A stretch of 32,000 nucleotides of DNA from Candidatus Iainarchaeum sp. (GTDB lineage: Archaea; Iainarchaeota; Iainarchaeia; Iainarchaeales; CSSED10-239). Shown here one piece after another: positions 13,031 to 29,205 of the stretch. The notes beneath the pieces are model-generated. The model had not been told where the DNA came from, did not search any database, and was given only the letters and a program-made list of their open reading frames with translations. Where the stretch lies: assembly GCA_028700115.1 (NCBI GenBank), contig JAQVTI010000001.1:150001-182000 (forward strand), read 5' to 3'. Both the position numbers and the translations under genes were made by a program. Position 1 is the stretch's first letter, and every line of letters begins with the position of its first letter.

Positions 13031-13065
13031 AAATTATTTAAAAACAAATAAAATATATATAATTT

Positions 13066-13105
13066 TCTAAAAGTCAACTAATTAATTAGCAAACTAATTA
13101 AATAA
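13066..13105. promoter_or_regulatory. Motif TCTAAAAGTCAACTAATTAA... in the divergent promoter between the wHTH gene and the 208-aa gene; shared with 15194-15280
   Basis: TCTAAAAGTCAACTA occurs at about 13066, 15194 and 15227. ACTAATTAAATAATA is also shared with 15263-15280. Confidence 0.5.
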
Positions 13106-13174
13106 TATAGAATAATTTATAAATATAATAAACAATATTAATATATTATTTAAAAAAACAAAACAAGAGAAAAC

Positions 13175-13801: not shown

Positions 13802-13825
13802 AACTAATTTTATTTTTATAAAAAA
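13773..13825. repeat. About 53-bp direct repeat, copy 1: the last 8 codons plus the 3' flank of the 208-aa gene
   Basis: AAAAAACTATGCTTTTTGAAAAAGCATAAAACTAATTTTATTTTTATAAAAAA recurs at 15282..15335. It is identical apart from A-run lengths. Confidence 0.9.
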
Positions 13826-15159
13826 CTTTTTGGTTTTTCTAACATAGCTAAAAACATACATACAGGTATAACTAAATTATTATTTAGATTAATATCTGCA
13901 GGTGCAACTAAATTTTTTGAAAGCATAATATATTCATCAACATCTTCTATAAAATTAGGTTTTTTAAATTTATTTCTATATTTAACTTCAATTGCTTTAT
14001 TTTTAAAAACAAAATCAATTTCTTTTTGATCTACATTATAATATTTTAATTCTAAATTATAAATATTTTGTAAATGACTACCAACTGTATTTTCTACAAG
14101 CTTACCTAAAAAAGTATCATTAAATAAAAGAGATCTACTTTCTTCAAAAGAATCTAAATTATTTGAATAGTTTAATAAAGAATGAATAATAAAAGGATCT
14201 TTAATATAAAATTTCTTTAAAAGATCTCTTGCAGATTCTTTTATTTCAAAAATAATTAATAATTCTTTTAATTCATTTAAATATTTTTTAATAGTATCTA
14301 TAGAATAACCTGTTTTTTCACTAATAGTTGTATATTTTAAAGAACCAGTTAAAGATTCAATTAAAACTTTTAATATTTCAATAGATTTTGTTTTATCCAT
14401 TTTTTCAAATATTTTTTGAATAATATCTTCATAATATTTTTCAGAAATTGAATTATTTTTAAAATAAGAGTTTATAGTTTCTGGAAAACCACCTGTTAAT
14501 AAATAAATATTAAAATATTTATTAATTTCATCAAAATAAGATTCTATATTTAAAAATTTACTAAGTATATCTTCATTAGATAAATTTAAATTAATTTCAG
14601 ACTTAACTAAAAGGTTATATAAACTTAAATTATCAGTTTTAGTTATATTTAAAAGAAATTGCCTAAAAGTTAAAGAAGACATAACTTTTATTTCTTCAGA
14701 TCTTCCAATTAATGCTTGTTTACATTCTTCAATTTTTCTAGGATCAGAACCAGTAACTACTAAACAAATATCTTTTAATAAATTAGAATCTTTTAAAGCT
14801 TTTAAAAAGGCACAACTATTTTGTAAAGATTGAATCTCATCAAATAAAATAATTTTAATAGGATATAAATTAATTATTTTTTCCATTTGCCTAAATAGTT
14901 CTTTTTCTTTTAAATTTAATAAAATATCAAAATTAAAATAAATTACTTCCTTTGAATTAGTAGAATAAGCAATTTGTTTTAAATAAATTGTTTTTCCTAC
15001 TCTTCTAGGTCCTTTAATTAAATTTATAGTCCCAGGAGTAAGATTTATAGAATCTCTAGTTATAATATATTTATTTTTAGATAAATTATCTATATCTGGA
15101 TCTTTTTTTCCTGAAAACCAGGGATTTTGACTTAAAACAACATTCCAATCTAAAGGCAT
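13816..15159 (-). CDS. AAA+ ATPase of the COG1373 type (AAA_14 N-domain plus DUF4143, PD-(D/E)xK-like C-domain)
   Basis: NPWF near the N-terminus, Walker A GPRRVGKT, Walker B ILFDEIQ, GS...LTFRQF, LLTGGFPE, and a C-terminal E..(x)n..EIDFV...IEVK nuclease-like triad. Confidence 0.85.
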   Translation of the reverse strand: MPLDWNVVLSQNPWFSGKKDPDIDNLSKNKYIITRDSINLTPGTINLIKGPRRVGKTIYLKQIAYSTNSKEVIYFNFDILLNLKEKELFRQMEKIINLYPIKIILFDEIQSLQNSCAFLKALKDSNLLKDICLVVTGSDPRKIEECKQALIGRSEEIKVMSSLTFRQFLLNITKTDNLSLYNLLVKSEINLNLSNEDILSKFLNIESYFDEINKYFNIYLLTGGFPETINSYFKNNSISEKYYEDIIQKIFEKMDKTKSIEILKVLIESLTGSLKYTTISEKTGYSIDTIKKYLNELKELLIIFEIKESARDLLKKFYIKDPFIIHSLLNYSNNLDSFEESRSLLFNDTFLGKLVENTVGSHLQNIYNLELKYYNVDQKEIDFVFKNKAIEVKYRNKFKKPNFIEDVDEYIMLSKNLVAPADINLNNNLVIPVCMFLAMLEKPKSFL

Positions 15160-15193
15160 ATATTAATTATACACCTATAAGTTTATAAATTTA

Positions 15194-15280
15194 TCTAAAA
15201 GTCAACTAGTTAACTAGTTGAAATTATCTAAAAGTCAACTAATTAACTAATTAACTAATTAACTAATTAATTAAATAATA
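15194..15280. promoter_or_regulatory. Repeat-rich promoter region of ATPase 1: two TCTAAAAGTCAACTA motifs, a perfect 18-bp palindrome and an (AACTAATT)n run
   Basis: The palindrome CAACTAGTTAACTAGTTG is at 15203..15220. AACTAATT is repeated about 4 times at 15237..15268. On the minus strand, a TTTATAAAC TATA-like box and GGTG lie between the palindrome and the ATG at 15159. Confidence 0.55.
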
Positions 15281-15281
15281 A

Positions 15282-15335
15282 AAAAAACTATGCTTTTTGA
15301 AAAAGCATAAAACTAATTTTATTTTTATAAAAAAA
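15282..15335. repeat. About 53-bp direct repeat, copy 2 (orphan 3' end of the 208-aa gene)
   Basis: See 13773..13825. This copy has no gene body upstream of it. It is preceded directly by the promoter-like motif. Confidence 0.9.
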
Positions 15336-15911
15336 TCATACATTAATATAGTCTTTATGAATATACTCTTTTACAAATAATAAAACATCTTTATTTGTAA
15401 ATTGATTTATACTCTTTTTATGATCTTCAAAAAACAGTTCATAACAATATCTAAGATATGAAGGATTAAGAGTTTTTACTTGGTTAAAAAATTTAACTTT
15501 TAACTCTTTAGAAATATCTAATTCTTTTATTTTTTTATCTAATTTATATTTTAAGATATTTCCTTGTCTATCAGATCTATTAACATAGATTTCTGCTTCA
15601 CGTTTTTCTATTTGTGCATATTTTAAAAAATGTTCAACAATTTTTATATATTCTTTTTGAGTTAGTTTTTTCATTAACTCTTTTGTAGTCATGTTTTTTT
15701 TATCTCTTAAAAGAATATTATGCATATGAAAAACAATATCAGAATCTGATAAAAATTTATCTTTTTGTTTAATTAGTTCTCTTAGTTTAGGGTCTACTAC
15801 TTTTTGATTTAGTTTCTTTGTAGACCTATTTCTAGTTATTTTAAAACTTTGTCTTTTTTCCTTAAATGTATAAGGTTTATTTGTTTTTGGATTTATTTTT
15901 CTAAAAGGCAT
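15336..15911 (-). CDS. Hypothetical lysine-rich protein (191 aa)
   Basis: Intact ORF with an ATG start, lying between AbiEii-1 and ATPase 1. No recognisable motif. Confidence 0.5.
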   Translation of the reverse strand: MPFRKINPKTNKPYTFKEKRQSFKITRNRSTKKLNQKVVDPKLRELIKQKDKFLSDSDIVFHMHNILLRDKKNMTTKELMKKLTQKEYIKIVEHFLKYAQIEKREAEIYVNRSDRQGNILKYKLDKKIKELDISKELKVKFFNQVKTLNPSYLRYCYELFFEDHKKSINQFTNKDVLLFVKEYIHKDYINV

Positions 15912-16013
15912 AAATAATTAACTCTTTTATATTATAACAAATATATAAAAGATAAATAAATTTATAAATAGTAATTTTTATTAAAAAAATAAATTTTTTT
16001 AAAGAAAATTCAT

Positions 16014-16736
16014 TTAATTAATTTTATTTAAAATAAACTTACAAATAAGTTTAAAATCTAATCTATATTTTTTTAAAATATAATGATTTGTTGAATTATT
16101 ATACAATTTTATTTTATAATCATCATTTATTATATTATTTAATTTATTAATAACTATAGATTTATCTTTTATTGGAAAATTATTATCTTTTAGTATAACA
16201 TAGATATCATAAATATCTTTACCTTCATCTCTATTTATAAAAGCTTTAATTTTTTGATAAAATAATTCTTCTAAACTATAAACATTAAAATAAGATATAT
16301 CAAAATCAACAAATCCAGGATAAATTATTTTTTTATTAATATCAGGCATATCTTTATTATTTAATCTAAATTCAAGCATAATTTTATCTTTTTGATTAAT
16401 CTCATTAATATACTGAATATCAAATCTAATTGTTTTATTCATGATTCTTGGTTTATTTACAATATAAGATTTCAAATATTTTTTTAAAATTAAATAAATA
16501 TCTTCTTTTAAAATATTTATTTCTTTTTTAGAAAAAATATCAAAATCAATATCTTCAGAAAATCTTTTAAATTTATTAAAATAAACTCTATTTAAAGAAG
16601 TTCCTCCTTTTAATATTATATTATCAAATTTATTCTCTAATAATTTAAATATTTTTGAAATTTCTTTATCTTTTATAATATAATTTGTAGATAATCCAGT
16701 ATCTAAACAAATTTTTCTAATAAGTTTTATATCCAT
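16014..16736 (-). CDS. AbiEii/AbiGii-family nucleotidyltransferase toxin (DUF1814), copy 1
   Basis: Signature ILKGGTSLNRVY....RFSEDIDFDI. The ATG at 16736 lies 4 nt after the AbiEi stop. The track start at 16757 is a TTG inside the upstream gene. Confidence 0.8.
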   Translation of the reverse strand: MDIKLIRKICLDTGLSTNYIIKDKEISKIFKLLENKFDNIILKGGTSLNRVYFNKFKRFSEDIDFDIFSKKEINILKEDIYLILKKYLKSYIVNKPRIMNKTIRFDIQYINEINQKDKIMLEFRLNNKDMPDINKKIIYPGFVDFDISYFNVYSLEELFYQKIKAFINRDEGKDIYDIYVILKDNNFPIKDKSIVINKLNNIINDDYKIKLYNNSTNHYILKKYRLDFKLICKFILNKIN

Positions 16737-16740
16737 TAAT

Positions 16741-17529
16741 TTAATACCACCAATCAATTATATTTTTTTCACCTAAATTATCTTTTAGTTTCCATTTATC
16801 TATATATTTTGATTTTTTATTATTTATATTTAATAAATAAGTATTAGATTTGTCTTGAGATAATAAATATTTTAAAAAATAATTAGGTATTTTTAAATTT
16901 GTATTTTTAAGTAAAATATCTAAAATATAGCCAGTAATTTGATTTTGTCTTTTACTAGAGTATTTTTTATAAATTAATAATAATTTATTCCAATTTATTT
17001 TATTTGAACCTAAATATATAGCTTTAGATAAAATAGAATAACTACCTATATATTTAAATTTATTAAAACAATCAAATATAGTTTTTTCTAAAGAAGAAAT
17101 ATAAATATTATCTATTCTTATAAAATCATTATAAAAATTAGTATTTATATATTTTAGATTATATTCATATAATTTAATATTTTTAGATTTTTTATTAGTA
17201 GAAATATATATGTTGAAAGGATGGTAATCTATTAAACCATAATAAAATAAAGCAGATGAAAAAGAAATATATCCAGGATATAAATTAGTTGCTATTTCAA
17301 AAAGATCATTTATTGAAAAAATATCTTTTTTAATATAATTATTTTTTTTAAGATTTAATAAATACCCTTTATCTTTTAATTGTTTTAATAAAAAATTAAT
17401 CTTATAATTAGAATAATCTTTAAAAGCAGATTTTAAATCATTGTTTTTTAATATATTATTCTTTTTTTTAGAATCTATATAGTTATACAAATAATTTTCA
17501 TTATTTGTTAATTGGTTATTTTTTTGCAT
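16741..17529 (-). CDS. AbiEi-like antitoxin / transcriptional regulator, copy 1
   Basis: It sits immediately upstream of AbiEii. The motifs LKDKGYLLNLKKNNY, YPGYISFSSALFYYGL, SLEKTIFDC and NQITGYILD follow the AbiEi (COG5340) pattern. Confidence 0.7.
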   Translation of the reverse strand: MQKNNQLTNNENYLYNYIDSKKKNNILKNNDLKSAFKDYSNYKINFLLKQLKDKGYLLNLKKNNYIKKDIFSINDLFEIATNLYPGYISFSSALFYYGLIDYHPFNIYISTNKKSKNIKLYEYNLKYINTNFYNDFIRIDNIYISSLEKTIFDCFNKFKYIGSYSILSKAIYLGSNKINWNKLLLIYKKYSSKRQNQITGYILDILLKNTNLKIPNYFLKYLLSQDKSNTYLLNINNKKSKYIDKWKLKDNLGEKNIIDWWY

Positions 17530-17644
17530 ATAACATAATTATATTACATAACCTTTAAAAAATTAACCAAAAAATATTTATTTAAAATATATTAAAAATA
17601 AATAAAATTTTAAGAAAAAGAATAAGTTTTAGATTTTTAAAATT

Positions 17645-17692
17645 TTTTTAAAAATAAAAAAAAGAAAAGAAAGAAAAGGAAATAAATCCTTT
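17645..17692 (-). terminator. Hairpin plus T-tract downstream of the S-layer gene
   Basis: AAAGGA-AATAAA-TCCTTT at 17675..17692. On the minus strand it is followed by TCTTTCTTTTCTTTTTTTTATTTTT. It lies 43 nt after the stop. Confidence 0.45.
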
Positions 17693-17734
17693 ATCTTTAA
17701 CGGTTTAGATTTAATCTATTTTATTTTCAAACAT

Positions 17735-20290
17735 TTACATGTTTTCAATAACGTTGATTAATTCTTTAGCAGCCATTGCAGTGTCTTCAGCTGTCATTCC
17801 AGCAACAACAATATTACCTTCAGCGTTTTGTCCTAATACATAGTCTCCAGAAGCTGTTAACATAGTATCTAATCCTATATTTTGAGCTAATGTGTTAACT
17901 AAGTGACCACCAACAATGATTTTGTTTCCTGCTGGGTTTTCGTTATCAAGGTATACTAATTTGTTTGTTGCAACATTCCATGTCATTGGAACAATAGCAT
18001 CAGTTGCAGCTCCACCAGATAAAGCAACAGCATCTAATGATACAGATACTCCGTCTTCTGTTTGTTGTTCTCCTTCAGCTGTTAAAGTGAATGTTGAACC
18101 GTTAATTGATGTTGAAGTACTAGCTCCTCCACCAACGAAGATTTGTCCATATAATTTAGTATCAGGAACAATTGCAGTAAACATACCTCCGTCTACTTCA
18201 GCATATGTACCAAATTCTGTATATCCCCAAGTTAAATCATCAGAATCTTCTTGATTTAGTGTGTAAGTTACAGCATCACCAGTTGTGAAAGCTGAATTTC
18301 CATTTACAACAAGAACTTGATCAACAACAGCTAAATAAGATGAATCATCTGTATCTACTAAATTTCCAGTTCCAGCATCAATATGAGCTACTACTGAATC
18401 TTGACCATCATCAACAACAAATTCAAACATAGATTTCATATCAGTACCGTCTGTTAAAACACCTGTAGCAGTTTTACCAACATATGTACCATCACTAGTT
18501 GCAGCAACATCTATTTGTGTATATATATTTTTAATAGTCCAATCTTGAGTAGGACTATCAATAGTACCTTCAATAGATCCTGCAGCACCTTCTTTAAGAC
18601 CTAATGCAAATTGAGTAATATCATTTGTTCCAGTTGCACCATCTTCGTTAATATATAAACCATAAGCTAATTTTTCAGATTCATTATTATATAATGGGAT
18701 TGTTAAATCTGTAAATGCAGCATCTGTGTAAACAAATTTAGAATTATCTGTATTTGTTGTTTCCCAAGTCCAAACATTAGAAGTTTTTGTTAAGTAATCT
18801 CCATCATCATCTTCTAATTGAACTGTGAAATAACCAATATCTAAAGCATCATTTGCAGCATTAGGAATTCCACCAACATTGGAATCTTCATTACCATATA
18901 TAAAACTATCATAAGAACCTACATCTGTAGTAGTATTAAAATCCTCATCAGCTGTATGGAATTCAATGTATAATTTCTTATCATCTAATGTTTGCATAGT
19001 TGTATAGTTTTCACCATCTCCGTAAGTTCCATCTTCTTCTTCATAAAAGAATACTTTGTGATCGTCGTCAGTAGCATCTATATAAGAAATATATCCATCT
19101 TCAACAATTACTTCTTTTGATGATTCATTAGTTAAACCTAAAAAGTCAATAGAACCTAAATCAAATGGTAAAACAATAGAGTCATCTACTTTTAAAGCAT
19201 CTTCATCTTCCCATTGAACATCTTGATCTTCATTAGTAAATACTATTTTTGTAATAGGATCAGAACCTGTAAAACTAACTTTCCATAATTTATCATCTAT
19301 ATTTGGGAAATCTTCAATAATTTGTCCACTTTCAAGCTCTATACTTGTACTTGTACCTGAAACAACAGTTACTTTTTTATCATAAACTGTATCTATTTCT
19401 ACATTTGATTCTAAATATTCGTTGAATACTGTTTCATAATCTGTAAAAACTTCAGAAGCTAAAATTGCACCATTTTGAGAAATACTTAATTCAACAGAAT
19501 AATTATTACTAGATTCTAAAATATCTTCAACAGTGATTGTATATCCGTCAACTTCAAAAGAAGCACCTTCTTCATAAGGAGCTGTATTTTTATTTTGAAC
19601 TAAAGTTACAATTCCATTAGAATAGTCTTCAAGAGTATATTCATTACCCATTAAATTAAATTTGAAATCAGGACTACCTTCATCATTAGCACCATTATTA
19701 ATTCCAGGATTAAATTCAAGAGTATATGAAATATCCCCTCTATCAAATGATGCTGTTAAATCAGCTACATCTTTATCTGAATCAAAAGCAACTGTAGGAG
19801 TAATAGTAATACTTTCTTGTACATTTATTTCATCAGTATCAAAAATACTATCATCAACATCTACGTCATAATCTCCTAAAACAGAATAATCTCTGTCATC
19901 AAGAGTTTCTGTAACACTAGTAGATCCTAATTCCCAATCATCTGTTAACAAACCGTCTCCAGAAATTGTAGATGTTGATTCAGCACCAGCTGTAACAGTT
20001 ACACTTTCTAATGCAGCTCCAGCGATTGCGTCACCTGATGTGTAAGCTTTCTTTCCAATAGCAGCAGCTATGTTTCCAGCCCATACAACATCAACTGGTT
20101 GAGCCATAGATCCAACGATTACATTGTAAGCTGGTCCTGTAGCACCAAATAATTGATCTTTTGTTAAGTTGTCTATTCCAGTGTATGTGTCATCTGCCAT
20201 GTTAGCAGCAGCAACAGCACCTGCAAATAAAGCAGAAACTGCAAAAACACCTGCACCAGCAACTATTTTCTTCATATTTATATTCTTCAT
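17735..20290 (-). CDS. S-layer / major cell-surface protein
   Basis: Signal peptide MKNINMKKIVAGAGVFAVSALFAGAVAAA. The mature part is acidic, rich in T/D/G/S/V, and contains no Cys. The C-terminal IIVGGHLVN...NIVVAGMTAEDTAMAAKELI resembles the C-terminal domain of euryarchaeal S-layer proteins. A strong GGTGA Shine-Dalgarno is present. GC content is visibly higher than in neighbouring genes. Confidence 0.75.
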   Translation of the reverse strand: MKNINMKKIVAGAGVFAVSALFAGAVAAANMADDTYTGIDNLTKDQLFGATGPAYNVIVGSMAQPVDVVWAGNIAAAIGKKAYTSGDAIAGAALESVTVTAGAESTSTISGDGLLTDDWELGSTSVTETLDDRDYSVLGDYDVDVDDSIFDTDEINVQESITITPTVAFDSDKDVADLTASFDRGDISYTLEFNPGINNGANDEGSPDFKFNLMGNEYTLEDYSNGIVTLVQNKNTAPYEEGASFEVDGYTITVEDILESSNNYSVELSISQNGAILASEVFTDYETVFNEYLESNVEIDTVYDKKVTVVSGTSTSIELESGQIIEDFPNIDDKLWKVSFTGSDPITKIVFTNEDQDVQWEDEDALKVDDSIVLPFDLGSIDFLGLTNESSKEVIVEDGYISYIDATDDDHKVFFYEEEDGTYGDGENYTTMQTLDDKKLYIEFHTADEDFNTTTDVGSYDSFIYGNEDSNVGGIPNAANDALDIGYFTVQLEDDDGDYLTKTSNVWTWETTNTDNSKFVYTDAAFTDLTIPLYNNESEKLAYGLYINEDGATGTNDITQFALGLKEGAAGSIEGTIDSPTQDWTIKNIYTQIDVAATSDGTYVGKTATGVLTDGTDMKSMFEFVVDDGQDSVVAHIDAGTGNLVDTDDSSYLAVVDQVLVVNGNSAFTTGDAVTYTLNQEDSDDLTWGYTEFGTYAEVDGGMFTAIVPDTKLYGQIFVGGGASTSTSINGSTFTLTAEGEQQTEDGVSVSLDAVALSGGAATDAIVPMTWNVATNKLVYLDNENPAGNKIIVGGHLVNTLAQNIGLDTMLTASGDYVLGQNAEGNIVVAGMTAEDTAMAAKELINVIENM

Positions 20291-20294
20291 ATAT

Positions 20295-20299
20295 TCACC
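20295..20299 (-). promoter_or_regulatory. Shine-Dalgarno GGTGA of the S-layer gene
   Basis: The minus strand reads AAAAAAAAAGGTGAATATATG. Confidence 0.55.
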
Positions 20300-20662
20300 T
20301 TTTTTTTTATATAAAGACTGAACCTGTGTAAATTAATTTTAAGTTAACAAAAAAACAAAGTTAGCTTATAAAACAGATTCGCCAAAGTAACGTTCATAGT
20401 TTACACTCATGTTACTGTAAGATATTAAAGAAAGAATATATTTAAAAAGGTAAGTTTTTTGGAAAGAAAACAAAAGGTTTATAAAGAAATATGCCTCATA
20501 AAAATTGTTTTCCAAACCATAAAAAAACCTTATTTTAGACATATAATAATAAATTATATTTGTTTATATATAATATATATTAAATATATAATATTTTAAA
20601 ATATAATCTATTGAATAAAAAAAGAACAAAAAAGAACTAAAAAGAAAATATCTAAAAAAAAA

Positions 20663-21198
20663 TTATTTATCTAGATAAATATCTAGATACATAGGCAAGG
20701 CACCTTTATCTCTTTCTTTTAATATTTTAAATTTAAATTTTTTATAAAAATGAATAGAATCTTTACTTTTGTCCTTATTTCTTTTTACATCTAAAATTAA
20801 AAATCTACAACCACAAATACTAGATAACTTTTTAGCTACACTATAAGAAATTTCAAGTAACATTGTTCCAAAGCCCATTCTTGAAAAATCATCATCAACT
20901 GCAAGTCTACCTATCTTTAATGCAGGAATTGCTTTATATTTAACATTTTTTTAAGAAAAAAAGTCTTTAAAGGTTTAGTTAAATTTAAAGAATCAGTTAA
21001 TAAAGTAACATAACATACTAAATTATCTTTATAAAATAATAAATAAGTAGTAGATATTTTTTGTTTTTAATTACTTAAAGCATCATCTACTAAAAAATCT
21101 TTCAAATCTTTCTCATAGGTTTTAAAATTAGTAATAATATCTTTGTCAGTTTTTAAAATAGGTCTAATTTTAATATATTTTAAATTTATTTTTTCCAT
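20663..21198 (-). pseudogene. GNAT-family acetyltransferase (TacT/KacT-like toxin type), disrupted
   Basis: From the ATG at 21198 the reading is MEKINL...DFLVDDALSN, then an in-frame TAA at 21067-21069. It continues KQKISTTYLLFYKDNLVCYVTLL...FFLKK. A frame change follows in the A/T run near 20945-20960. It then reads KAIPALKIGRLAVDDDFSRMGFGTMLL...FYKKFKF, the acetyl-CoA-binding core. The ORF track reports only the last 71 aa. Confidence 0.7.
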
Positions 21199-21353
21199 AA
21201 TTGACTTTCATAAAAAGATCTGTTCTTTTCTGCATTTTTAATAAATGCAACTCTTTCTTTAGAAGGATGCTTTAACTCTTTAGCCCATCCTTTAATAAAC
21301 TTATCAGCATCATCCCCTCTTAATACAGGAGTTGCTCTAATTAGTTTAGCCAT
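21186..21353 (-). CDS. Small ORF (55 aa) coupled to the GNAT gene; candidate cognate antitoxin
   Basis: MAKLIRATPVLRGDDADKFIKGWAKELKHPSKERVAFIKNAEKNRSFYESQLWKK. Its stop overlaps the GNAT ATG by 13 nt (ATGGAAAAAATAA). It is below the ORF-track size cut-off. Confidence 0.45.
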   Translation of the reverse strand: MAKLIRATPVLRGDDADKFIKGWAKELKHPSKERVAFIKNAEKNRSFYESQLWKK

Positions 21354-21506
21354 ATTTATCACATTTATATAATATATATGTATTTATTAAAACAATTTAT
21401 AAGTATTTGTATTACAAATAAAAAAAGAACAAAAAAGAAAGAGAAATAGAATATAAATTTTTAAAAAAAAGAAAATAAAAAAACAGTTTTTAATATTTTA
21501 AAAAAA

Positions 21507-24386
21507 CTATCTCCTTCCACCACTAACTGCATCTTCTATTGTCCAATTAAAATTATTTATAATATAGTCTTTTGCAGTAAGTCCATCTCCAGAAGGAGTA
21601 CTATTTCCTGCATCAAAAGATACATTTGATTGTAAAGGCAATTTACTCCAACTAATTAATAAAGAATTATAATTTGAAGAAGATAAAGAAGTAATTGAAA
21701 ACATATTTCCCATATCTGTTACATTAGAAACATTCCAAGAAGCTAAATTTTGATCGAAAACCTCATTATTACAAAACATATAATACATATTATTTACATT
21801 TGAAACATCCCAATTATTTAAAGGTTGATTAAATGAACTTGCACCATTAAACATATCACTCATATCAGTTACATTTGAAACATCCCAATTATTTAAAGGT
21901 TGATTAAAAGCACGCACCCTACAAAATACACCACTCATATCTGTTATTGAAGATGTATTCCAATCATTTATATAACTATTAAAATCAGTATTATTTGTAA
22001 ACATACCTTTTATTGAAGTTATATTAGATAAATCCCAATAATTAATATTAGGTATACCAGTCAAATATCCTCCACAACCTTCAAACATATATTCTAAAGA
22101 AGTTGTTCTATTTAATTTTAAAATATCTTCAGCTGTAACACTTAAATTAGAACAACCTCTAAATTGTGAATCTGTAACTCCAAGATCAAGATTACCCCAT
22201 TTTGAAATATCACTAATTTTTAATCTATCTCCAGAATCATTAAAAGACCAACCTTCTAATTCTCCAAAAATATTTAAATCATACACTCCATAAGAATCAT
22301 AAGTATGAGGTAAATCCGAATCATCCCAAGAAGTTATTTGTGAAGTTGTTCCATCATCCCATTCTACAGTGAAATCATAATTACCATCAGAAACTAAAGG
22401 TAACATAATTTGATTATATTCACTAGATCCAGTAGAAGTTTTTGTAGTATCCCAAGTTGAAATAAAATAATTACTTTCACAATCTGTTGGACAACTATCT
22501 GAATTTTCTGAAGAATATGAACAAATACCATCTCCACAACTTCCACAATCTGCATAACAAGAACTTACAGTTTCATAAACAGTACAGAAACCATCTCCAC
22601 AAACACTACAATCTTGAGGACATGTATCTAAATTTTCATCAGAAGAAGTACAAATTCCATCTCCACAACTACCACAATCTATATAACAAGTATCTATATT
22701 TTCATCCCCATTACAAGATTCATCTCCACATTCAGGAGGACCTGGAACAATACCTAAATCTTCTAGATACCAACCTAAATCATTTACTAAATAATTATAA
22801 GCATCATCTGCTTCTGCAGTATGATATAGATTAATATTACTAACACCAACACCTAAAGCAATATTAGGATTATCAGCCCAATCAATTAATGTATTTGAAT
22901 AATTTTCTACAGACATAGATGTAGGTATATTATAATCAACATCAGATAAAAAACCATATAAACAATCCATATTTGCTAAATTCCAATCGCCTATATCTTG
23001 ATCAAAACTAGATCCTTCAAATAAAGCTACAGCAGCATATAAATTTGAAACATCCCAACTTGAAATATCTTGATTAAAATCTGAAAAAAAGAAAGTATAT
23101 CTCACCTTTTCAACATTTGAAACATCCCAAGAAGAAATATCTTGATTAAAAGGAACTTTTCTAACAGAAGAAAAATCAACAAGTTCAGATAACCATTCAG
23201 GATATTCAAATAACAAACTAATCTGTGTTTTTCCAAATGTATTTGATAAATCTAAAATATTAGAAGTATCCCAATTTTCTATATTTGGAATATCTACTAA
23301 AGAAAAACAATCTGCAAATGAAGCGGTTAAATAAGTTGTATTTTCTAAAATATCTAAACTATCTTCAGCAGTAATTGTTAAATTTTCACAACCAGTAAAA
23401 TGCCCATATGAATTTGAATCAATAGAATCTAATTTTAATGGTCCCCAATTAGATATATTTAATATTTTTAATCTATCTTTACTTAAATGAACATTATCAT
23501 AAATACAAAAATCCAAACCATTTATTTCTTCAAAATTATAATCAGCAAAAGACCAGCCTTCTATTGTTCCATTAATATTTATTTCGTATTCTCCAGATAA
23601 AGAATAAGTATGTAATTTATCAGAATCATCATATGAAGTTATTTCTGAAGTAGTCCCATCTCCCCAATCTACAGTAAAATCATAATTACCATTTGGAACT
23701 AATGGAAGCTCTATTTGGTCATCATCACTTGAATAACCATATTCTATTAAACTTTCCATTTCAAAATCCATATAGTAATTTATAGATGTATTATTTGTAT
23801 CCCATGTAGAAGTAAAATAATTAATATGACAATCATCATAACAAGTTTCTTCAGTTTCAGAACCATTACAAGTTCCATCTCCACAATAAGGTGCATTATC
23901 ACATGAAACAAGACTTGCTCCTAAATAACTTACAGGAATAGAAATATATTTACCATCATTAGTTTTTAATTCTAAAATAAATTCTTTTGAAGGAATACAT
24001 ATTATATCTAATTGATTACTTCTATTTGGATTAATAACTAAAGGAGTTTCTAAAGTATATTCTGTGTTTATAAAATTTGTATTTTCTGCGGTTGTAGAAA
24101 TTAATTTATATGCAACAACATTTAAATCTTTATTAAAATTGTTATTTTCTAAAACAACTTTAGAATAATCCCCAGACATACTTTCATAAACACTTAAACA
24201 TTTTATAAACCCATCTAAATCTGATTTATCATAAGTAACTACAGAAGATTCATCTAGATTAGATATAGTAAAATCTTTTGAAAAAGAAACAATTCCTGCA
24301 ATTAAAACAACTGAAACTAAAACAATTAAAACAGTTGCAATTAATGGAGAAATTGCTTTTTTATTAAAAATATATTTTGAATTCAT
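21507..24386 (-). CDS. Large surface adhesin-like protein: class III signal peptide, shared N-module, two DUF285/BspA-like repeat domains joined by tandem Cys-rich modules
   Basis: N-terminus MNSKYIFNKKA/ISPLIATVLIVLV. There are two blocks of WDVSN(V)xxMxxMF..FNQ(D/P)(I/L) repeats. Each block is preceded by a TWDT...NYDFTV(D/E)WGDGTTS segment. Confidence 0.85.
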   Translation of the reverse strand: MNSKYIFNKKAISPLIATVLIVLVSVVLIAGIVSFSKDFTISNLDESSVVTYDKSDLDGFIKCLSVYESMSGDYSKVVLENNNFNKDLNVVAYKLISTTAENTNFINTEYTLETPLVINPNRSNQLDIICIPSKEFILELKTNDGKYISIPVSYLGASLVSCDNAPYCGDGTCNGSETEETCYDDCHINYFTSTWDTNNTSINYYMDFEMESLIEYGYSSDDDQIELPLVPNGNYDFTVDWGDGTTSEITSYDDSDKLHTYSLSGEYEININGTIEGWSFADYNFEEINGLDFCIYDNVHLSKDRLKILNISNWGPLKLDSIDSNSYGHFTGCENLTITAEDSLDILENTTYLTASFADCFSLVDIPNIENWDTSNILDLSNTFGKTQISLLFEYPEWLSELVDFSSVRKVPFNQDISSWDVSNVEKVRYTFFFSDFNQDISSWDVSNLYAAVALFEGSSFDQDIGDWNLANMDCLYGFLSDVDYNIPTSMSVENYSNTLIDWADNPNIALGVGVSNINLYHTAEADDAYNYLVNDLGWYLEDLGIVPGPPECGDESCNGDENIDTCYIDCGSCGDGICTSSDENLDTCPQDCSVCGDGFCTVYETVSSCYADCGSCGDGICSYSSENSDSCPTDCESNYFISTWDTTKTSTGSSEYNQIMLPLVSDGNYDFTVEWDDGTTSQITSWDDSDLPHTYDSYGVYDLNIFGELEGWSFNDSGDRLKISDISKWGNLDLGVTDSQFRGCSNLSVTAEDILKLNRTTSLEYMFEGCGGYLTGIPNINYWDLSNITSIKGMFTNNTDFNSYINDWNTSSITDMSGVFCRVRAFNQPLNNWDVSNVTDMSDMFNGASSFNQPLNNWDVSNVNNMYYMFCNNEVFDQNLASWNVSNVTDMGNMFSITSLSSSNYNSLLISWSKLPLQSNVSFDAGNSTPSGDGLTAKDYIINNFNWTIEDAVSGGRR
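22480..22733 (-). repeat. Five tandem Cys-rich modules CGD(G/E)xCxxxExxxxCxxDC within the adhesin
   Basis: The translation reads ECGDESCNGDENIDTCYIDC GSCGDGICTSSDENLDTCPQDC SVCGDGFCTVYETVSSCYADC GSCGDGICSYSSENSDSCPTDC. The periodic DNA also produces the spurious + strand ORF at 22487..22834. Confidence 0.8.
23863..24364. repeat. 502-bp segment about 99 % identical to 1576..2077
   Basis: See 1576..2077. Confidence 0.9.
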
Positions 24387-24480
24387 ATTATTATATACAT
24401 AGATTTTATTTAAAAAGATTTAGTTAAACCTTTTATTGCCAAACAAATTTTTATAAATAAATAAAATAAATTACTATAAA

Positions 24481-24767
24481 AAAAGGAAAGAAAACTATTT
24501 CTTTCCTGTTATATGGTTTAACTCTTGTTTTAATTTAAAAATCATATCAGCATAACCATGAGTCATATCAACTATTGTAAATAAACTTTCTTGAAGATCA
24601 GAAATTGGAACATTTAGTTTCTCTGGTTTAATTACATCTATTGAAGTTACACCATAGTAATAAACTAATCTAAATAAAGACTGTAAATCCTTACAAGAAA
24701 CTTCAGCTTCAATATATGTTGAAAACAAACCATCATGAACTACAATTTCTGCAATCTTTGATTCATA
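24481..24767. repeat. 287-bp direct repeat, copy 1 (about 97 % identical to 26543..26829)
   Basis: The two copies align at a constant offset of 2062 bp, with about 9 mismatches by eye. The repeat covers 14 bp of 3' flank plus the last ~90 codons of the 217-aa gene. Confidence 0.9.
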
Positions 24768-24803
24768 CAATATAGATTTAACTAATTTTTTAGAAAATAT
24801 CAA
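24495..24803 (-). pseudogene. 3' fragment duplicating the C-terminal ~90 aa of the 26557..27210 gene
   Basis: ESKIAEIVVHDGLFSTYIEAEVSCKDLQ...KLKQELNHITGKK differs from the full-length copy at 3 residues. The ORF opens only through a TTG and 13 unrelated codons. Confidence 0.75.
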
Positions 24804-24842
24804 CTATTGTTTTTAATTAACATTTTATAAAATAAGATAAAT

Positions 24843-25730
24843 TTATTTAATTAAAATACTTTTTTTAAGTAAATACAAATATTTATCTAAAACATCTTTT
24901 AAAATAAGATCAGATCTTAAAACCACTTCTAAAGAAGATAAATTCACATTATTTAATTCTAATTTAGAAATATATTTAAAAAAATCATCTATTTTAAAAG
25001 CATTTTTATTATATTCTAAACTTTCATTTATTTTTAATAAAACTAAATCTAAAAATAAAGGATCAATTTTAACTAAATCTTTACTTAAAATATACCCAAT
25101 ATCAAAAATATCTCTTAAAGCTAAAAAAGGTCTTGTAACTAAAGCTCTATACTTCTCACTTAAATTTTCTCTAATGTCTATACATTCTATCTTAGAAACA
25201 TCATCTAAAATAGCATCATTTAATTTATCATAAAATAAATGATTTATAGTTTTTATTTTAGTATCTAAATAAAGTTTATGCCTAAAAGACACATCTATTT
25301 TTATTTGTTGTAAATCTTCAGATAATAAAGATTTATATTTTGCATAAACAACTAAGTTAATAATTCTACCATTTTGAGTAATTATTTTCCAACCTTTCCC
25401 TAACTCATCACTTACTACTAACCCACATTTTAAGCATAATTTATTTATTTCAGACCTTATTTTTTCAGATTTTAATTTTAAAGCTCTATTTGTTAAATTA
25501 TTTAAATCCTCATTAAAAATAAAATCTAAATCTTCACTTAATCTATAAAATCCTAAATAACATTTATTTAAACAAGTACCACCTTTAAAAATAAGATTAT
25601 CAATTTTATTATTAGAAAGTTCAATTAAAAATTTTGTTAAAAAATAATCTTTTTCTAATAATAGTGAATTAAATTTTTCTCTATTAGAAACTTCAAGTAT
25701 TAAATTTTTTAAATTAACTTTATCTTCCAT
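24843..25730 (-). CDS. AbiEii/AbiGii-family nucleotidyltransferase toxin (DUF1814), copy 2
   Basis: Signature LIFKGGTCLNKCY....RLSEDLDFIF. The ATG at 25730 overlaps the upstream AbiEi gene by 22 nt. Confidence 0.8.
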   Translation of the reverse strand: MEDKVNLKNLILEVSNREKFNSLLLEKDYFLTKFLIELSNNKIDNLIFKGGTCLNKCYLGFYRLSEDLDFIFNEDLNNLTNRALKLKSEKIRSEINKLCLKCGLVVSDELGKGWKIITQNGRIINLVVYAKYKSLLSEDLQQIKIDVSFRHKLYLDTKIKTINHLFYDKLNDAILDDVSKIECIDIRENLSEKYRALVTRPFLALRDIFDIGYILSKDLVKIDPLFLDLVLLKINESLEYNKNAFKIDDFFKYISKLELNNVNLSSLEVVLRSDLILKDVLDKYLYLLKKSILIK

Positions 25731-26464
25731 TTAATATACCTCAAATCTAAATTAGTATTTCTTATTTTTGTATAATATCTAAACTTATTTAATTTATTTA
25801 AATAATCATACAATTTTTCATTTTCTGTAATTATACCAATTAATTTTAGTAATTTTATAGAATTTATTTTTTTTGCATATTTAATAAGTTTATTTTCATC
25901 AAATTTATCTTTATTTTTTTTAAAAATATAAATTAAATGATCTAATGAATCAACATATTTAAAATAATTTAAAGAATCTATAATAGTTTTTTCGATATCA
26001 GAAAAAGGACATTTATTTTTAAACACACCAAATAAATTAGACTTATTTATTTTAATATAATGTATATTAAAATCTAATATTTTTTTTGTTAAATTATACT
26101 TAGTATTAAATACAAATAATTTATTAGGAATTTGAGTTATAAAACCATATTTATTTAAAGCATTAATTAAACCAATATAATATTTGTTTGAATTTAAATA
26201 AAATTCATTAATTTCAAATTCAGAAACAACTGGCTTTCTATCTATAGAAGATACTGGAATATAAATATAATTATCTTTTTTAATAGAAATTAAATATTTC
26301 TGAAATAATAAATATTTAATAAATCTATTTGGATTGTTTGAATCTATATTTTTTATAATAATATCTAATAATTCATTTTTAGAAATAAAATGTATTTTTT
26401 TATATTCTAAAATAGAAATTAACTTCTTGGTCAAATTATTAGAAAAGTTGGATTTATTAACCAT
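25709..26464 (-). CDS. AbiEi-like antitoxin / regulator, copy 2
   Basis: Located upstream of AbiEii-2 and overlapping it. The pattern YIGLINALNKYGFITQIP...DIEKTIIDSL...LLKLIGIITE follows the AbiEi layout. The ATG is at 26464; the track uses a TTG at 26482. Confidence 0.65.
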   Translation of the reverse strand: MVNKSNFSNNLTKKLISILEYKKIHFISKNELLDIIIKNIDSNNPNRFIKYLLFQKYLISIKKDNYIYIPVSSIDRKPVVSEFEINEFYLNSNKYYIGLINALNKYGFITQIPNKLFVFNTKYNLTKKILDFNIHYIKINKSNLFGVFKNKCPFSDIEKTIIDSLNYFKYVDSLDHLIYIFKKNKDKFDENKLIKYAKKINSIKLLKLIGIITENEKLYDYLNKLNKFRYYTKIRNTNLDLRYIKWKIKLI

Positions 26465-26542
26465 ATGTATTATTTTGACCAAAAACTATTTAAAAGATAT
26501 TATTTTTAAAAATAAAGACCTATTTAGAAAAACAGAAAAAAG

Positions 26543-26829
26543 AAAAGAAAAGAAAACTATTTCTTTCCTGTTATGTAGTTTAACTCTTGTTTTAATTTAA
26601 AAATCATATCAGCATAACCATGAGTCATATCAACTATTGTAAATAAACTCTCTTGAAGATCAGAAATTGGTATGTTTAGTTTCTCTGGTCTAATTACATC
26701 TATTGAAGTTACACCATAGTAATAAACTAATCTAAATAAAGACTGTAAATCTTTACAAGAAACTTCAGCTTCAATATATGTTGAAAACAAACCATCATGA
26801 ACTACAATTTCTGCAATCTTTGATTCATA
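26543..26829. repeat. 287-bp direct repeat, copy 2
   Basis: See 24481..24767. Confidence 0.9.
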
Positions 26830-27210
26830 TACTAAAAACTTTTTATCAGATTTTAGTCTTTCTAAAATCTTATTCATTGCATCTTCTAAAGTTGCTTTAT
26901 TATCTCCTTTAGACTCAATCATAATACTTACTTTAATTAAGTTTTTATCAGATTCAGAAATTGACTTTCTTGAATCTAACTTTTCTGCAATTTCTTTTGA
27001 AATAGAATACTTTGCAGGAAAGCCTTCTCTTTTTATAAGTTTTAATACAAGCATATTTTTTAGAGTTGCAGTTAAATCTTCATAACTTGCATCTTTAAAT
27101 TCTTTTTTAAGTTCTTCATCAGTTTTTGGAGACTTATAAATAGATTTTGCAATTTCTTTTCTTAAATCAAGAATTCTTTTTTGTTTGTCTACATCTACAT
27201 TTTCAGTCAT
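26557..27210 (-). CDS. Hypothetical protein (217 aa); N-terminal region possibly wHTH-like, C-terminal alpha/beta domain
   Basis: Intact ORF with an ATG start and a TAG stop. I do not recognise the family. Its 3' third is duplicated at 24495..24767. Confidence 0.5.
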   Translation of the reverse strand: MTENVDVDKQKRILDLRKEIAKSIYKSPKTDEELKKEFKDASYEDLTATLKNMLVLKLIKREGFPAKYSISKEIAEKLDSRKSISESDKNLIKVSIMIESKGDNKATLEDAMNKILERLKSDKKFLVYESKIAEIVVHDGLFSTYIEAEVSCKDLQSLFRLVYYYGVTSIDVIRPEKLNIPISDLQESLFTIVDMTHGYADMIFKLKQELNYITGKK

Positions 27211-27410
27211 AAATTTTCACATTTTATAATTATCTTAAATATTTACACATCTATAAATATATATTAGTTAAGAAACATATAAAAAAGAAAGGTTACTAAG
27301 AAATTAATTTAATTAATCAATAAAATCATCTCTAGAAAGTCTTAAAACATCAAAAGATTTATTTAAAATATAAATTACCTAACAGAACATAGATTTAATA
27401 ATTTAAAAAA

Positions 27411-27572
27411 ATGAAAATGGATAAAAAAGAAGTAATTTATCCATTAAAATGGATAAAAAACACTAAAAAAGCATTTAAAACCACAAAAATGGATAAAAAT
27501 AAGCTTATTTATCCATTAAAATGGATAAACTTAAAAAGACAACTATATATAATATATATAAAACTAAAATAA
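27411..27572 (+). CDS. Possible small ORF (53 aa) with an internal duplication MDKxxxIYPLKWI; an alternative reading of the repeat array
   Basis: The ATG at 27411 and TAA at 27570-27572 are in frame across both repeat units. No Shine-Dalgarno was seen. Coding status is doubtful. Confidence 0.25.
   Translation: MKMDKKEVIYPLKWIKNTKKAFKTTKMDKNKLIYPLKWINLKRQLYIIYIKLK
27414..27557. repeat. 72-bp tandem duplication (x2); each unit carries AAAATGGATAAA, then TTTATCCATT, then AAAATGGATAAA
   Basis: Direct sites lie at 27414, 27446, 27486 and 27518. Inverted sites lie at 27436 and 27508. All three site types recur with a 72-bp period. The array lies 20-165 bp upstream of ATPase 2, whose own start (AAATATGGATAAT) resembles the motif. 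Confidence 0.85.
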
Positions 27573-27579
27573 GATAAAT

Positions 27580-28863
27580 ATGGATAATTATAATTATATA
27601 CTTAAATCTGAAAGAAAAAAAGAAAAACTATTAGATGAAATTAAAAATTATAATGAAAGAAACATAGTTACAGAAATCAGAGAAGAAATTAAACTTTATA
27701 AAAATAAAAAAAATAAAAGAATATTCTTATTTTATGGACTTAGAGGGATTGGAAAATCAACTGCATTATTACAAATTATAAAAGAAAATAAAGATGCAAT
27801 GTATATTGATGGTACAGAAATATCTTATTATAATCTAGAACTTATAAAAGTTATAGAAGAATACAAAAAAATAAATAAATCAAATATATTAATTATAGAT
27901 GAATTAAATGATATACCTAATTGGGGAAAAGCACTTAAAATATTATATGATTCTGAGAATTTAAAAATAATTGCAACAGGATCTTCGGCAATAAAAATAT
28001 CACAAGAAATAAAAGAAATAATTAGAAGATCTAAAATAAAAAAACTGCAAGCTTTAAGTTTTAAAGAATTTTTAAAATTAAAATACAATATAGAATACAA
28101 TATCACAAATGAAATTAAAGATATATTATTTTCAAAAAAAGAAGACGCATTTATAAAAATTAAAAATTTAAATTTAGATATACTTAAAAAAAATCAAGAT
28201 ATTGAAAAACATTTCAGAGAATACATATATGAAGGCATACCTTTAATGATTAACACAGGGGAAAAAATACAAGACATATCTCAAAATATAATTTATAAAA
28301 TAATAGTAGATGATTTTAAAAATATTACAGGATTTAATATTAAAACTATAGATAAATCTAAAAAAATTATTAGAGCAATTGCAGAAGCAAAACCAGGACA
28401 CACTTCTTTTAAAAATTTAAGTGATAACTTCGATATATCCGCAACTACAATTTCTGAAATTATAAATGCATTTAAAATATCTGAATTAATTATAGAAACT
28501 TATGTTAATAAAAAATCAATGGCAAAATACAGAAAAGAACCTAAAATTTTATTTAGCTCTTCAGCAATAAGATATGGATTATTATTAAATAATTTTGATG
28601 AAACAGATATTGGAACACTTAGAGAAGATGCTTTTGTTTCAAATATAATATATAGTGGATTAAATGTAAATTATATTGCAGAAAATAAAAAAACACCTGA
28701 TTTTGAAATAAGTGATGACAAAAATAAAGTTATTGTAGAAATAGGTGGACAAAATAAAAAAACTAAACAGATCAAAAAAGGTTTTATAATTACAGAAAGT
28801 AATAAAATAGATATTATAAACAATGTGATATACATGCCTTTATACATGGTTTGTTTAATATAA
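27580..28863 (+). CDS. AAA+ ATPase, COG1373-like (second, divergent copy) with a nuclease-like C-terminus
   Basis: Walker A GLRGIGKST, Walker B LIIDELNDIPNW, ATGSS, ALSFKEFL, and C-terminal E..x..PDFEI...VVEIG. Confidence 0.8.
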   Translation: MDNYNYILKSERKKEKLLDEIKNYNERNIVTEIREEIKLYKNKKNKRIFLFYGLRGIGKSTALLQIIKENKDAMYIDGTEISYYNLELIKVIEEYKKINKSNILIIDELNDIPNWGKALKILYDSENLKIIATGSSAIKISQEIKEIIRRSKIKKLQALSFKEFLKLKYNIEYNITNEIKDILFSKKEDAFIKIKNLNLDILKKNQDIEKHFREYIYEGIPLMINTGEKIQDISQNIIYKIIVDDFKNITGFNIKTIDKSKKIIRAIAEAKPGHTSFKNLSDNFDISATTISEIINAFKISELIIETYVNKKSMAKYRKEPKILFSSSAIRYGLLLNNFDETDIGTLREDAFVSNIIYSGLNVNYIAENKKTPDFEISDDKNKVIVEIGGQNKKTKQIKKGFIITESNKIDIINNVIYMPLYMVCLI

Positions 28864-29186: not shown

Positions 29187-29205
29187 TGAGTTTTAGGTGA
29201 AGTTT

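Follow-up and report, generated by a model that had tools for sequence, protein, structure and literature searches.

The genome of Candidatus Iainarchaeum sp. (assembly GCA_028700115.1) contains two AbiE toxin-antitoxin gene pairs and two genes for COG1373-type ATPases arranged on both sides of an S-layer protein gene. We analysed a stretch of 32,000 nt of this genome (positions 150,001 to 182,000 of contig JAQVTI010000001.1), referred to below as the window. The window has a G+C content of ~22% and carries archaeal information-processing genes, including those for MCM, an RPA-like protein, RtcB and aIF2-beta. The S-layer gene (17735..20290, minus strand; S_layer_C, 1.4e-12) lies between the two loci and is the backbone gene at the centre of the region. 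A preliminary description of the window had proposed that an AbiE pair and a neighbouring ATPase-nuclease make up a composite defence system that was assembled twice. A check of the open reading frames (ORFs) and searches with Pfam and PADLOC profiles confirmed that two divergent AbiEi/AbiEii pairs and two divergent ATPases of the AAA_14 plus DUF4143 type (COG1373) are present at the coordinates given below, that exactly one gene lies between each ATPase and an AbiE pair, and that the region is rich in defence and addiction genes. Also borne out was the absence of a recent duplication: the two ATPases are 29% identical, the two AbiEi proteins are 30% identical, and AbiEii1 and AbiEii2 can be aligned only over the catalytic motif (GGT...R.SEDhDF). 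The paralogues are thus old.

AbiE is a bicistronic type IV toxin-antitoxin and abortive-infection module. Its toxin, AbiEii, is a nucleotidyltransferase that stops growth once set free, and AbiEi both represses and neutralises this toxin. In the first pair (minus strand), AbiEi1 (16741..17529) is a predicted antitoxin and regulator that matches the PADLOC AbiEi profile (6.9e-38) and has a weak NCBIfam TAA_AbiEi match that is far under the cut-off. AbiEii1 (16014..16757) is a predicted nucleotidyltransferase toxin (PF08843, 4.4e-22; PADLOC AbiEii, 3e-23) with the motif GGTSLNRVYFNKFKRFSEDIDF. In the second pair, also on the minus strand, AbiEi2 (25709..26482, or to 26464 from the first ATG) is a predicted antitoxin (PADLOC AbiEi, 2.2e-27) and AbiEii2 (24843..25730) a predicted nucleotidyltransferase toxin (PF08843, 2.4e-22; PADLOC, 1.3e-31). 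The antitoxin gene comes first in each pair and overlaps the toxin gene on the same strand, by 17 nt in AbiE1 (16741-16757) and by 22 nt in AbiE2 (25709-25730). The PF08843 matches of both AbiEii proteins exceed the gathering score, and both proteins contain the GGT...R.SEDhDF motif. Pfam gave no match for AbiEi1 or AbiEi2, whose family membership comes from PADLOC profiles that fit over nearly the full length.

The window pairs resemble the characterised AbiE type IV systems (AbiEi plus DUF1814 AbiEii, with lactococcal and Streptococcus agalactiae prototypes) in their overlapping, antitoxin-first bicistronic organisation, in the PF08843 domain and GG[ST]...R.S.DhDh nucleotidyltransferase signature of AbiEii, in the fit of AbiEi to the PADLOC profiles, and in being a self-contained two-gene unit that occurs in many unrelated contexts. 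They differ in being archaeal, from DPANN lineages with only a distant relationship to the characterised bacterial pairs, in having AbiEi proteins that fall outside the Pfam AbiEi models, and in that a search for an inverted-repeat operator upstream of AbiE2 found none (26483-26556 contains no inverted repeat of 9 nt or longer). Upstream of AbiEi1 there were only AT-rich, low-information repeats. The AbiE2 type is widespread in DPANN archaea, with 4465 homologues of AbiEii2, and in each of four distinct AbiE2-type neighbourhoods (43-47% identity) the same 250-aa AbiEi overlaps AbiEii by 22 nt.

Both ATPases have the architecture of the PADLOC candidate family PDC-S01. ATPase 1 (13816..15159, minus strand) matches AAA_14 (7e-20), DUF4143 (1e-17; 64.6 bits versus a cut-off of 28.1 bits) and PDC-S01 (8e-24), and its domain order is AAA+ ATPase, winged helix-turn-helix (wHTH), PD-(D/E)xK nuclease. 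ATPase 2 (27580..28863, plus strand) matches AAA_14 (1e-23) and PDC-S01 (6e-27); its DUF4143 match (3.5e-5) scores 24.1 bits, under Pfam's cut-off of 28.1 bits. All seven PDC-S01 models match both proteins. Homology of the ATPase 2 C-terminus to DUF4143 is backed by these full-length profile matches and by the alpha-beta-beta-beta-(alpha)-beta topology of its AlphaFold (AF2) model. The AF2 models of ATPase 1 (pLDDT 83.7) and ATPase 2 (pLDDT 90.9) both have an AAA+ domain, a helical or winged-helix region and a C-terminal core of this topology, with the acidic residues placed as expected. Fold searches returned ORC/Cdc6, RFC, RuvB and Apaf-1, all with low TM-scores. No solved structure with the architecture of these ATPases was found, the sequence matches being generic AAA+ proteins, and neither clade had relatives on viral contigs. 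In an index of 5.8 billion proteins, ATPase 1 and AbiEii2 were matched at 100%, and ATPase 2 had no identical entry (best match, 67%), which could be due to a different gene call in the source annotation.

The predicted catalytic residues are complete in the ATPase 1 clade and altered in the ATPase 2 clade. A joint alignment of the two clades was too divergent for locus searching, and one alignment for each clade was used. In the ATPase 1 clade, the Walker A lysine K56, the Walker B residues D107-E108, and the nuclease residues E356, D382 and E391-x-K393 are invariant. In the ATPase 2 clade, K59, D107-E108, E349, D374 and E387 are invariant and the Walker A and B motifs are intact, but the canonical nuclease lysine (at +2) is replaced by an invariant Gly-Gly, also in the distant relatives displayed, and a lysine four residues later (K393) is invariant. 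The possibility that the DUF4143 regions lack the catalytic residues was thus half right: the whole ATPase 2 clade lacks the canonical lysine of E-x-K and the ATPase 1 clade does not. K393 might substitute for it, and to judge from its sequence ATPase 2, which is an accessory gene, may have an impaired nuclease.

A link of this ATPase type to defence has been proposed before, and only a pairing with AbiE would be new. DUF4143/COG1373 is family no. 100 in the PD-(D/E)xK classification of Steczkiewicz et al. 2012 (PMC3424549). The 145 PDCs are candidates whose defining feature is a position inside BREX, DISARM or type I RM loci (bioRxiv 10.1101/2024.01.29.577857). PDC-S01, an ATPase fused to a PD-(D/E)xK domain, ranks as the fourth commonest prokaryotic defence-type locus; 9,986 copies are counted across 7,747 archaeal genomes, and enrichment of AbiE, SoFic and several PDCs is reported for DPANN archaea (PMC12988326). 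The statement in the preliminary description that the ATPase plus PD-(D/E)xK architecture has no demonstrated defence mechanism still holds: a PDC-S01 representative tried in E. coli is absent from the four candidates that protected against T7, T5 or T4 (bioRxiv 10.1101/2024.09.26.614923), and this trial is the only experimental test of PDC-S01 that we found in the literature. Like PDC-S01, both window ATPases combine this domain architecture with strong profile matches, and each is a single gene with its own promoter in a variable region, where several paralogous copies sometimes occur. They depart from PDC-S01 in that ATPase 1 is syntenic across the whole lineage rather than patchy, and in that the ATPase 2 clade has the Gly-Gly substitution and a sub-threshold DUF4143 score.

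AbiE1 is absent from a very close relative that retains ATPase 1. In this relative (L123), an exact AbiE1-empty site lies beside an ATPase 1 that is 94% identical to that of the window, and AbiE1 is therefore a separate insertion or deletion (indel). By blastn, window positions 13152-15979 correspond to L123 positions 3368-549 and window positions 17578-18108 to L123 positions 534-1; the 1,598 bp between them (15980-17577) are missing from L123, with ~14 bp in their place. This segment is the AbiE1 cassette (15980..17577, minus strand), an indel of ~1.6 kb that comprises a short promoter, the genes for AbiEi1 and AbiEii1, and a T-rich tail. The gene order in L123 is S-layer, a 181-aa gene, ATPase, 208-aa gene (minus strand), T2SSE (minus strand), RPA and MCM. 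At the amino acid level, T2SSE and the S-layer C-terminus are each 93% identical to their window counterparts, MCM is 91% identical and the product of the 208-aa gene 81%. ATPase 1 is under purifying selection (dN/dS of 0.15 between the window and L123) and is kept in L123 without AbiE1.

The gene between AbiE1 and ATPase 1 is not part of the AbiE1 cassette. This gene (15336..15911, minus strand) encodes a lysine-rich protein of 191 aa with one homologue among 1.84 billion representatives in an exhaustive HMMER search, and that homologue occupies the same position in L123, where AbiE1 is missing. It is a fast-evolving gene between well-conserved neighbours (54% amino acid identity; dN/dS of 0.57). 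The public gene call begins at Met74 and gives a protein of 118 aa.

The second AbiE pair lies alone inside an apparent insertion footprint. A direct repeat of ~300 nt and ~95% identity (24478-24777 and 26540-26839) encloses AbiE2 and nothing else. It corresponds to the last ~280 nt of a 217-aa gene (26557..27210, minus strand) together with its terminator hairpin: the 3' end of that gene is the second copy, and the first (24478..24777) is a duplicated 3' fragment with its hairpin, in which a 102-aa ORF (24495-24803) lies. From its sequence, this repeat is best read as the insertion footprint of AbiE2 alone. The 217-aa gene, which is the gene between AbiE2 and ATPase 2, belongs to the MJ0538 family and to the conserved backbone. 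Its product is 57% identical over 212 aa (3e-89) to a syntenic protein in the relative L001 that is annotated as PF27325, an assignment taken from the precomputed annotation of L001 as the Pfam copy searched contained no PF27325 model. A further orthologue is present in L113, and no AbiE genes adjoin the orthologue in L001. ATPase 2 and AbiE2 are on opposite strands with this backbone gene between them. The preliminary description had called both intervening genes uncharacterised, which does not hold for the 217-aa gene. Neither its product, nor the 191-aa near-orphan, nor the 208-aa protein encoded next to ATPase 1 had a significant match in Pfam, PADLOC, NCBIfam or PHROGs.

Comparison with relatives separated a conserved backbone from variable cargo. 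We compared synteny with seven more distant relatives (L001, L005, L013, L014, L015, L017 and L113) and with L123. The backbone consists of an MJ0043_C-like gene, a small membrane protein gene, the MJ0538-family gene, the S-layer gene, ATPase 1, the gene for a T2SSE-type ATPase (T2SSE), RPA and MCM. The MJ0538-family and membrane protein genes have syntenic orthologues in L001 and L113, the 430-aa MJ0043_C-like gene has a match in L001 only, and S-layer orthologues are syntenic at 37-52% identity. Orthologues of ATPase 1 (52-94% identity) lie between the S-layer and T2SSE genes in 8/8 retrieved relatives, where the contig reaches, and ATPase 1 has diverged about as much as RPA (52-58% versus 51-57% amino acid identity). 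The cargo differs from genome to genome. In the window it consists of ATPase 2, AbiE2 with a DUF285 surface protein gene, AbiE1 with the 191-aa gene, and the 208-aa gene with a wHTH gene. L001 carries Fic, NTP_transf_2, HD and unknown genes; L005 carries three further AAA_14-type (COG1373-like) paralogues, RelA_SpoT and DUF3368; and L113 carries three AbiE pairs, two further AAA_14-type (COG1373-like) paralogues, Bro-N and VapB/PemK. Overall, the other toxin-antitoxin and defence cargo in the slots of the relatives comprises Fic, NTP_transf_2, RelA_SpoT, DUF3368/UPF0175, VapB/PemK, Bro-N and extra COG1373 paralogues. In L005, four AAA_14-type (COG1373-like) genes lie within 21 kb (8593-13609 and 20061-21293), three of them consecutive between the S-layer and T2SSE genes, and COG1373 paralogues cluster with one another more often than with AbiE.

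AbiE genes were near the ATPase 1 orthologue in only one of the eight relatives (L113), and there in a different order. The L113 orthologue of AbiE1 (45-47% identity) is on the other side of ATPase 1, and copy numbers and orientations differ, an arrangement that reads as the behaviour of an insertion-prone island and not as a conserved system. A PADLOC search of the unannotated neighbours in L001, L005 and L006 gave zero matches and no hidden AbiE genes.

Proximity of AbiE and COG1373 genes was infrequent in a wider census. We examined 97 non-redundant COG1373-centred loci, excluding the window, with ~820 kb of flanks, and detected AbiE genes by three means: a hidden Markov model (HMM) trained on 66 AbiEii sequences, a second HMM for AbiEi, and a motif scan. 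An AbiEii-family gene was within 10 kb in 3-6 of the 97 loci (L113, L081 and L094/L095, with a borderline nucleotidyltransferase in L027/L028), and an operonic AbiEii-COG1373 arrangement was found in none of them. Neither co-occurrence nor gene order was conserved across the loci, and the 3-6% incidence is consistent with general defence-island clustering. At loci of the ATPase 2 clade (42-67% identity) AbiE was present in 0/11, the neighbours being mostly housekeeping genes in unrelated contexts, and conversely an AAA_14/DUF4143 gene within 7 kb of an AbiE2-type pair was found at 0/4 loci. An apparent AbiEii-COG1373 operon in L081 was rejected: an overlapping ORF between the two genes is a UDP-glucose dehydrogenase, and the ATPase is a frameshifted pseudogene. 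On this marine contig (198-7852), AbiEii, the COG1373 pseudogene, ORF6N and Abi_2 are interleaved with genes for UDP-glucose dehydrogenase and UDP-GlcNAc 2-epimerase, another instance of defence genes inside a cell-surface glycan locus. At the locus with the closest ATPase 2 orthologue (67%; L006 10001-11856, and also L007-L011), the next gene after the ATPase encodes an HD-domain protein and overlaps the ATPase gene by 4 nt, an arrangement kept in six assemblies. This HD-domain gene, which is absent from the window, could be a true partner of the ATPase 2 clade.

Each ATPase gene has its own array of palindromes upstream, and the two arrays are unrelated in sequence. A 17-nt box, AAAAGTCAACTARTTAA, occurs three times in the window versus 0.3 expected, and 0/100 shuffles reached three copies. 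Two copies are upstream of ATPase 1, in an operator-like array (15197..15246, plus strand) that also contains a perfect 18-nt palindrome, CAACTAGTTAACTAGTTG; the third, AAAAGTCAACTAATTAA (13069..13085, plus strand), is upstream of the 208-aa gene. The array upstream of ATPase 2 (27415..27529, plus strand) consists of six AATGGATAAA units that form two 57-nt repeats, each of which holds inverted repeats. Palindromic arrays had been described for both promoters of the supposed composite; they are present at the ATPase promoters, and neither ties an ATPase to an AbiE promoter. A different palindrome precedes the 94%-identical ATPase of L123. The shared 17-nt box suggests a common regulator of ATPase 1 and the 208-aa gene. 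A candidate, possibly acting on the box, is a 66-aa winged-helix protein (12819..13019, minus strand; Pfam HTH_24, 1.8e-10, with PHROG MarR/HTH matches) encoded divergently from the 208-aa gene, a role assigned by inference. The 5' end of its ORF (12975-13030) contains three imperfect tandem copies of ttcttccacagtctc, which gives a repetitive N-terminus. The 208-aa gene itself (13175..13801, plus strand) is convergent with ATPase 1 and restricted to the lineage, with dN/dS of 0.26 relative to L123, and is absent from the more distant relatives. A relationship of the 208-aa protein to the 191-aa protein, or to the product of a 207-aa gene at the matching position in L005, was rejected on direct comparison.

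Perfect direct repeats of 53 nt, which contain the end of the neighbouring gene, lie on either side of ATPase 1 and its promoter. Copy A (13773..13825) contains the 3' end of the 208-aa gene, the hairpin ATGCTTTTTGAAAAAGCAT and the last codons of ATPase 1; copy B (15282..15334), 100% identical, is non-coding and has the ATPase 1 promoter on one side and the 191-aa gene's stop codon on the other. Comparable brackets are present in L123 (58 nt, 100% identity; 1174-1231 and 2701-2758), in L001 (555 nt, 95%, from the 3' end of T2SSE and the region downstream; 9305-9858 and 11630-12182) and in L113 (49 nt, 92%; 9847-9895 and 11392-11440). In each of these four genomes the two copies resemble each other more closely than they resemble those of the other genomes, which indicates concerted evolution of the brackets. 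A 6-nt insertion is present in both L123 copies and in neither window copy, and this points to gene conversion between copies. The short contigs L003 and L004 break at repeats flanking the ATPase 1 orthologue, assemblies being fragmented at the variable region.

Synonymous divergence also differs along this segment. Between the window and L123, dS was 0.17 for ATPase 1 (13816-15159 versus 1352-2695) and 0.14 for the S-layer C-terminus, three to four times lower than for the adjacent T2SSE (0.52) and RPA (0.69) genes, which suggests recent exchange of the bracketed segment and of the S-layer segment between lineages. A footprint like that of AbiE2 occurs in an unrelated DPANN contig (L121), in which two RadC genes in direct repeat (~80% DNA identity; 3617-3916 and 7046-7345) flank an AbiE2-type cassette. 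The MJ0538-family duplication around AbiE2 and the RadC copies are the same kind of footprint, a duplicated neighbour. From such repeats we infer that a cassette may enter on circular DNA that bears part of the adjacent gene, by a single homologous crossover and not by site-specific recombination.

We consider it probable that the stretch is a hypervariable defence and addiction island on a conserved Candidatus Iainarchaeum (DPANN) backbone, and that the AbiE pairs and the ATPases in it are independent of one another. Small, self-sufficient cassettes would have entered the gaps between backbone genes. Each AbiE pair would be an autonomous bicistronic toxin-antitoxin or abortive-infection module that arrived separately, AbiE1 as 1.6 kb inserted between the terminator of the S-layer gene and the 191-aa gene, and AbiE2 behind the MJ0538-family gene, leaving a duplicated 3' end on both sides. 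The ATPases would be independent single-gene units of the PDC-S01 type, each with its own palindromic operator array; with an ORC/RFC-like AAA+ fold, a winged helix and a PD-(D/E)xK core, they probably act as DNA sensors or DNA-binding proteins with ATP-dependent cleavage of DNA. ATPase 1 would be a long-term resident of its slot, under purifying selection, bracketed by duplicated ends of its neighbour and subject to recent allelic exchange. AbiE and the ATPases would lie close together because both are among the commonest DPANN defence-type genes and pile into the same insertion-prone island. The genes add new members to two kinds already recognised, namely AbiE and the PDC-S01/COG1373 candidate family.

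The island has the hallmarks of two kinds of region already recognised, the defence islands of Makarova and Koonin and the 'metagenomic islands' of archaeal surface proteins, which are flexible islands beside cell-surface genes. As in these, a conserved backbone is interrupted by variable slots that are loaded with toxin-antitoxin and defence genes and differ between close relatives, and the island sits at the S-layer gene and at DUF285 and DUF2341 surface-protein genes. It differs from them in that no integrase or transposase is present in the window and in that the cassettes come with duplicates, 53-555 nt long, of the 3' ends of genes next to them.

Several points weigh against independence of the AbiE pairs and the ATPases or narrow what can be drawn from the comparison. 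In L113, a second Iainarchaeal genome, the S-layer gene again has AbiE pairs and COG1373 genes to either side, so that their co-residence is recurrent within the lineage and some co-selection is conceivable. The 3-6% incidence of AbiEii near COG1373 genes is probably above the expectation for a random genome. The loci were retrieved by similarity to the ATPase, which makes genomes without ATPase 1 invisible, and residence in all relatives means all retrieved relatives. The route of integration is read from the repeat footprints, and the literature contains no COG1373 protein with a demonstrated function.

A functional composite of AbiE and a COG1373 ATPase-nuclease, serving immunity or addiction, assembled twice independently and with the 191-aa and 217-aa proteins as accessories, now seems to us very improbable. 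Both combinations do lie within two genes in the window, the two families again occur together to either side of the S-layer gene in L113, and a few unrelated COG1373 loci (L081 and L094/L095) have AbiEii at 2-6 kb. This proposal did not survive the AbiE1-empty site in L123, where a 94%-identical ATPase 1 remains under purifying selection and the 191-aa gene stays with it, nor the footprint that holds AbiE2 only, nor the identity of the 217-aa gene as an MJ0538-family backbone gene that separates AbiE2 from an ATPase on the opposite strand. The neighbourhoods of orthologues argue against it in both directions (AbiE at 0/11 ATPase 2 loci, COG1373 at 0/4 AbiE2-type loci), order and orientation are not kept in L113, and in L081 a sugar dehydrogenase intervenes and the ATPase is frameshifted. 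A looser synergy, in which the two kinds of gene are mechanistically independent and co-selected as complements (for example, a nuclease as first line plus abortive infection), is improbable in our view, if less so than the composite. It would fit the co-residence in 2/9 Iainarchaeal islands, each with at least two AbiE pairs, the AbiEii genes within 10 kb of 3-6% of COG1373 loci, and surveys according to which both families dominate, in DPANN as in other communities (PMC12988326, PMC13356809). However, high individual abundance and one main hotspot in a genome of ~1 Mb predict co-residence unaided, the slots of other relatives carry Fic, RelA_SpoT, NTP_transf_2, VapBC-like and PemK-like cargo, and we did not find a published co-occurrence specific to the AbiE/PDC-S01 pair.

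Two further alternatives concern the role of ATPase 1. It might be a housekeeping or regulatory ATPase-nuclease of the lineage, active in DNA repair, recombination or control of the adjacent surface or pilus genes, with its neighbours alone as defence cargo; we regard this as unlikely, though it is the strongest of the alternatives. ATPase 1 occupies the same slot between S-layer and T2SSE in every retrieved relative with backbone-like divergence (52-58% versus 51-57% for RPA), is under strong purifying selection (dN/dS of 0.15), shares the 17-nt operator box with the 208-aa gene and has no relatives on viral contigs, and the sole PDC-S01 representative tried gave no phage protection. Set against this, the PDC family is defined by embedding in BREX, DISARM and type I RM loci, paralogues pile up beside ATPase 1 in L005, L015 and L113 in the manner of defence genes, and the recombining repeats and low dS are suggestive of horizontal exchange, which would be unusual for a housekeeping gene. 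A housekeeping role would also bear on the ATPase only and is compatible with AbiE and the ATPases being uncoupled. More speculatively, and with little probability in our estimate, an ATPase 1-type gene could organise the island, its winged helix and nuclease making or maintaining a recombination hotspot that serves DPANN archaea as an integrase-free, homing-like platform for cassette capture. Such a role would explain the persistent brackets of neighbour ends, the dS below that of the flanks, and the gathering of paralogues and cassettes (AbiE, Fic, RelA_SpoT) beside the S-layer gene.

As first posed, the proposal would have meant a two-component immune system not seen before. What the evidence indicates instead is two known types of module side by side in an ordinary defence and toxin-antitoxin island. 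If the island is read as a set of independent cassettes, its filled and empty sites are a natural experiment in which AbiE pairs and PDC-S01 ATPases were gained and lost independently in DPANN archaea. A conserved PDC-S01 resident beside the S-layer gene, held by purifying selection, fits awkwardly with a purely mobile-defence view of this abundant family, and the duplicated 3' ends of neighbours without a recombinase suggest how tiny, integrase-poor genomes may gain accessory genes.

Other parts of the window also show possible traces of recombination and decay. Two DUF285 surface-protein genes ~20 kb apart (822-2180 and 21507-24386) have stretches in common, some with 99% identity (1567-1866 and 23854-24153) and others with 80%, which indicates probable recent recombination or duplication between surface-protein genes. 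The larger of them, which encodes 959 aa, contains Cys-rich tandem repeats (22479-22730). Between the S-layer and DUF285 genes (20663-21362) there are a 71-aa ORF, broken frames and an upstream 58-aa ORF that may be the remnant of a decayed acetyltransferase-type (GNAT) toxin-antitoxin system; Pfam gave no support for this segment, and its sole match was that of the 71-aa ORF to a PHROG acetyltransferase (2.4e-8). At the other end of the window (29197-31922), a 13-kb contig of a further assembly (L124; GCA_028691725.1, JAQUYT010000015.1) has an identical RtcB and stops inside the MJ0043_C-like gene, at the island edge.

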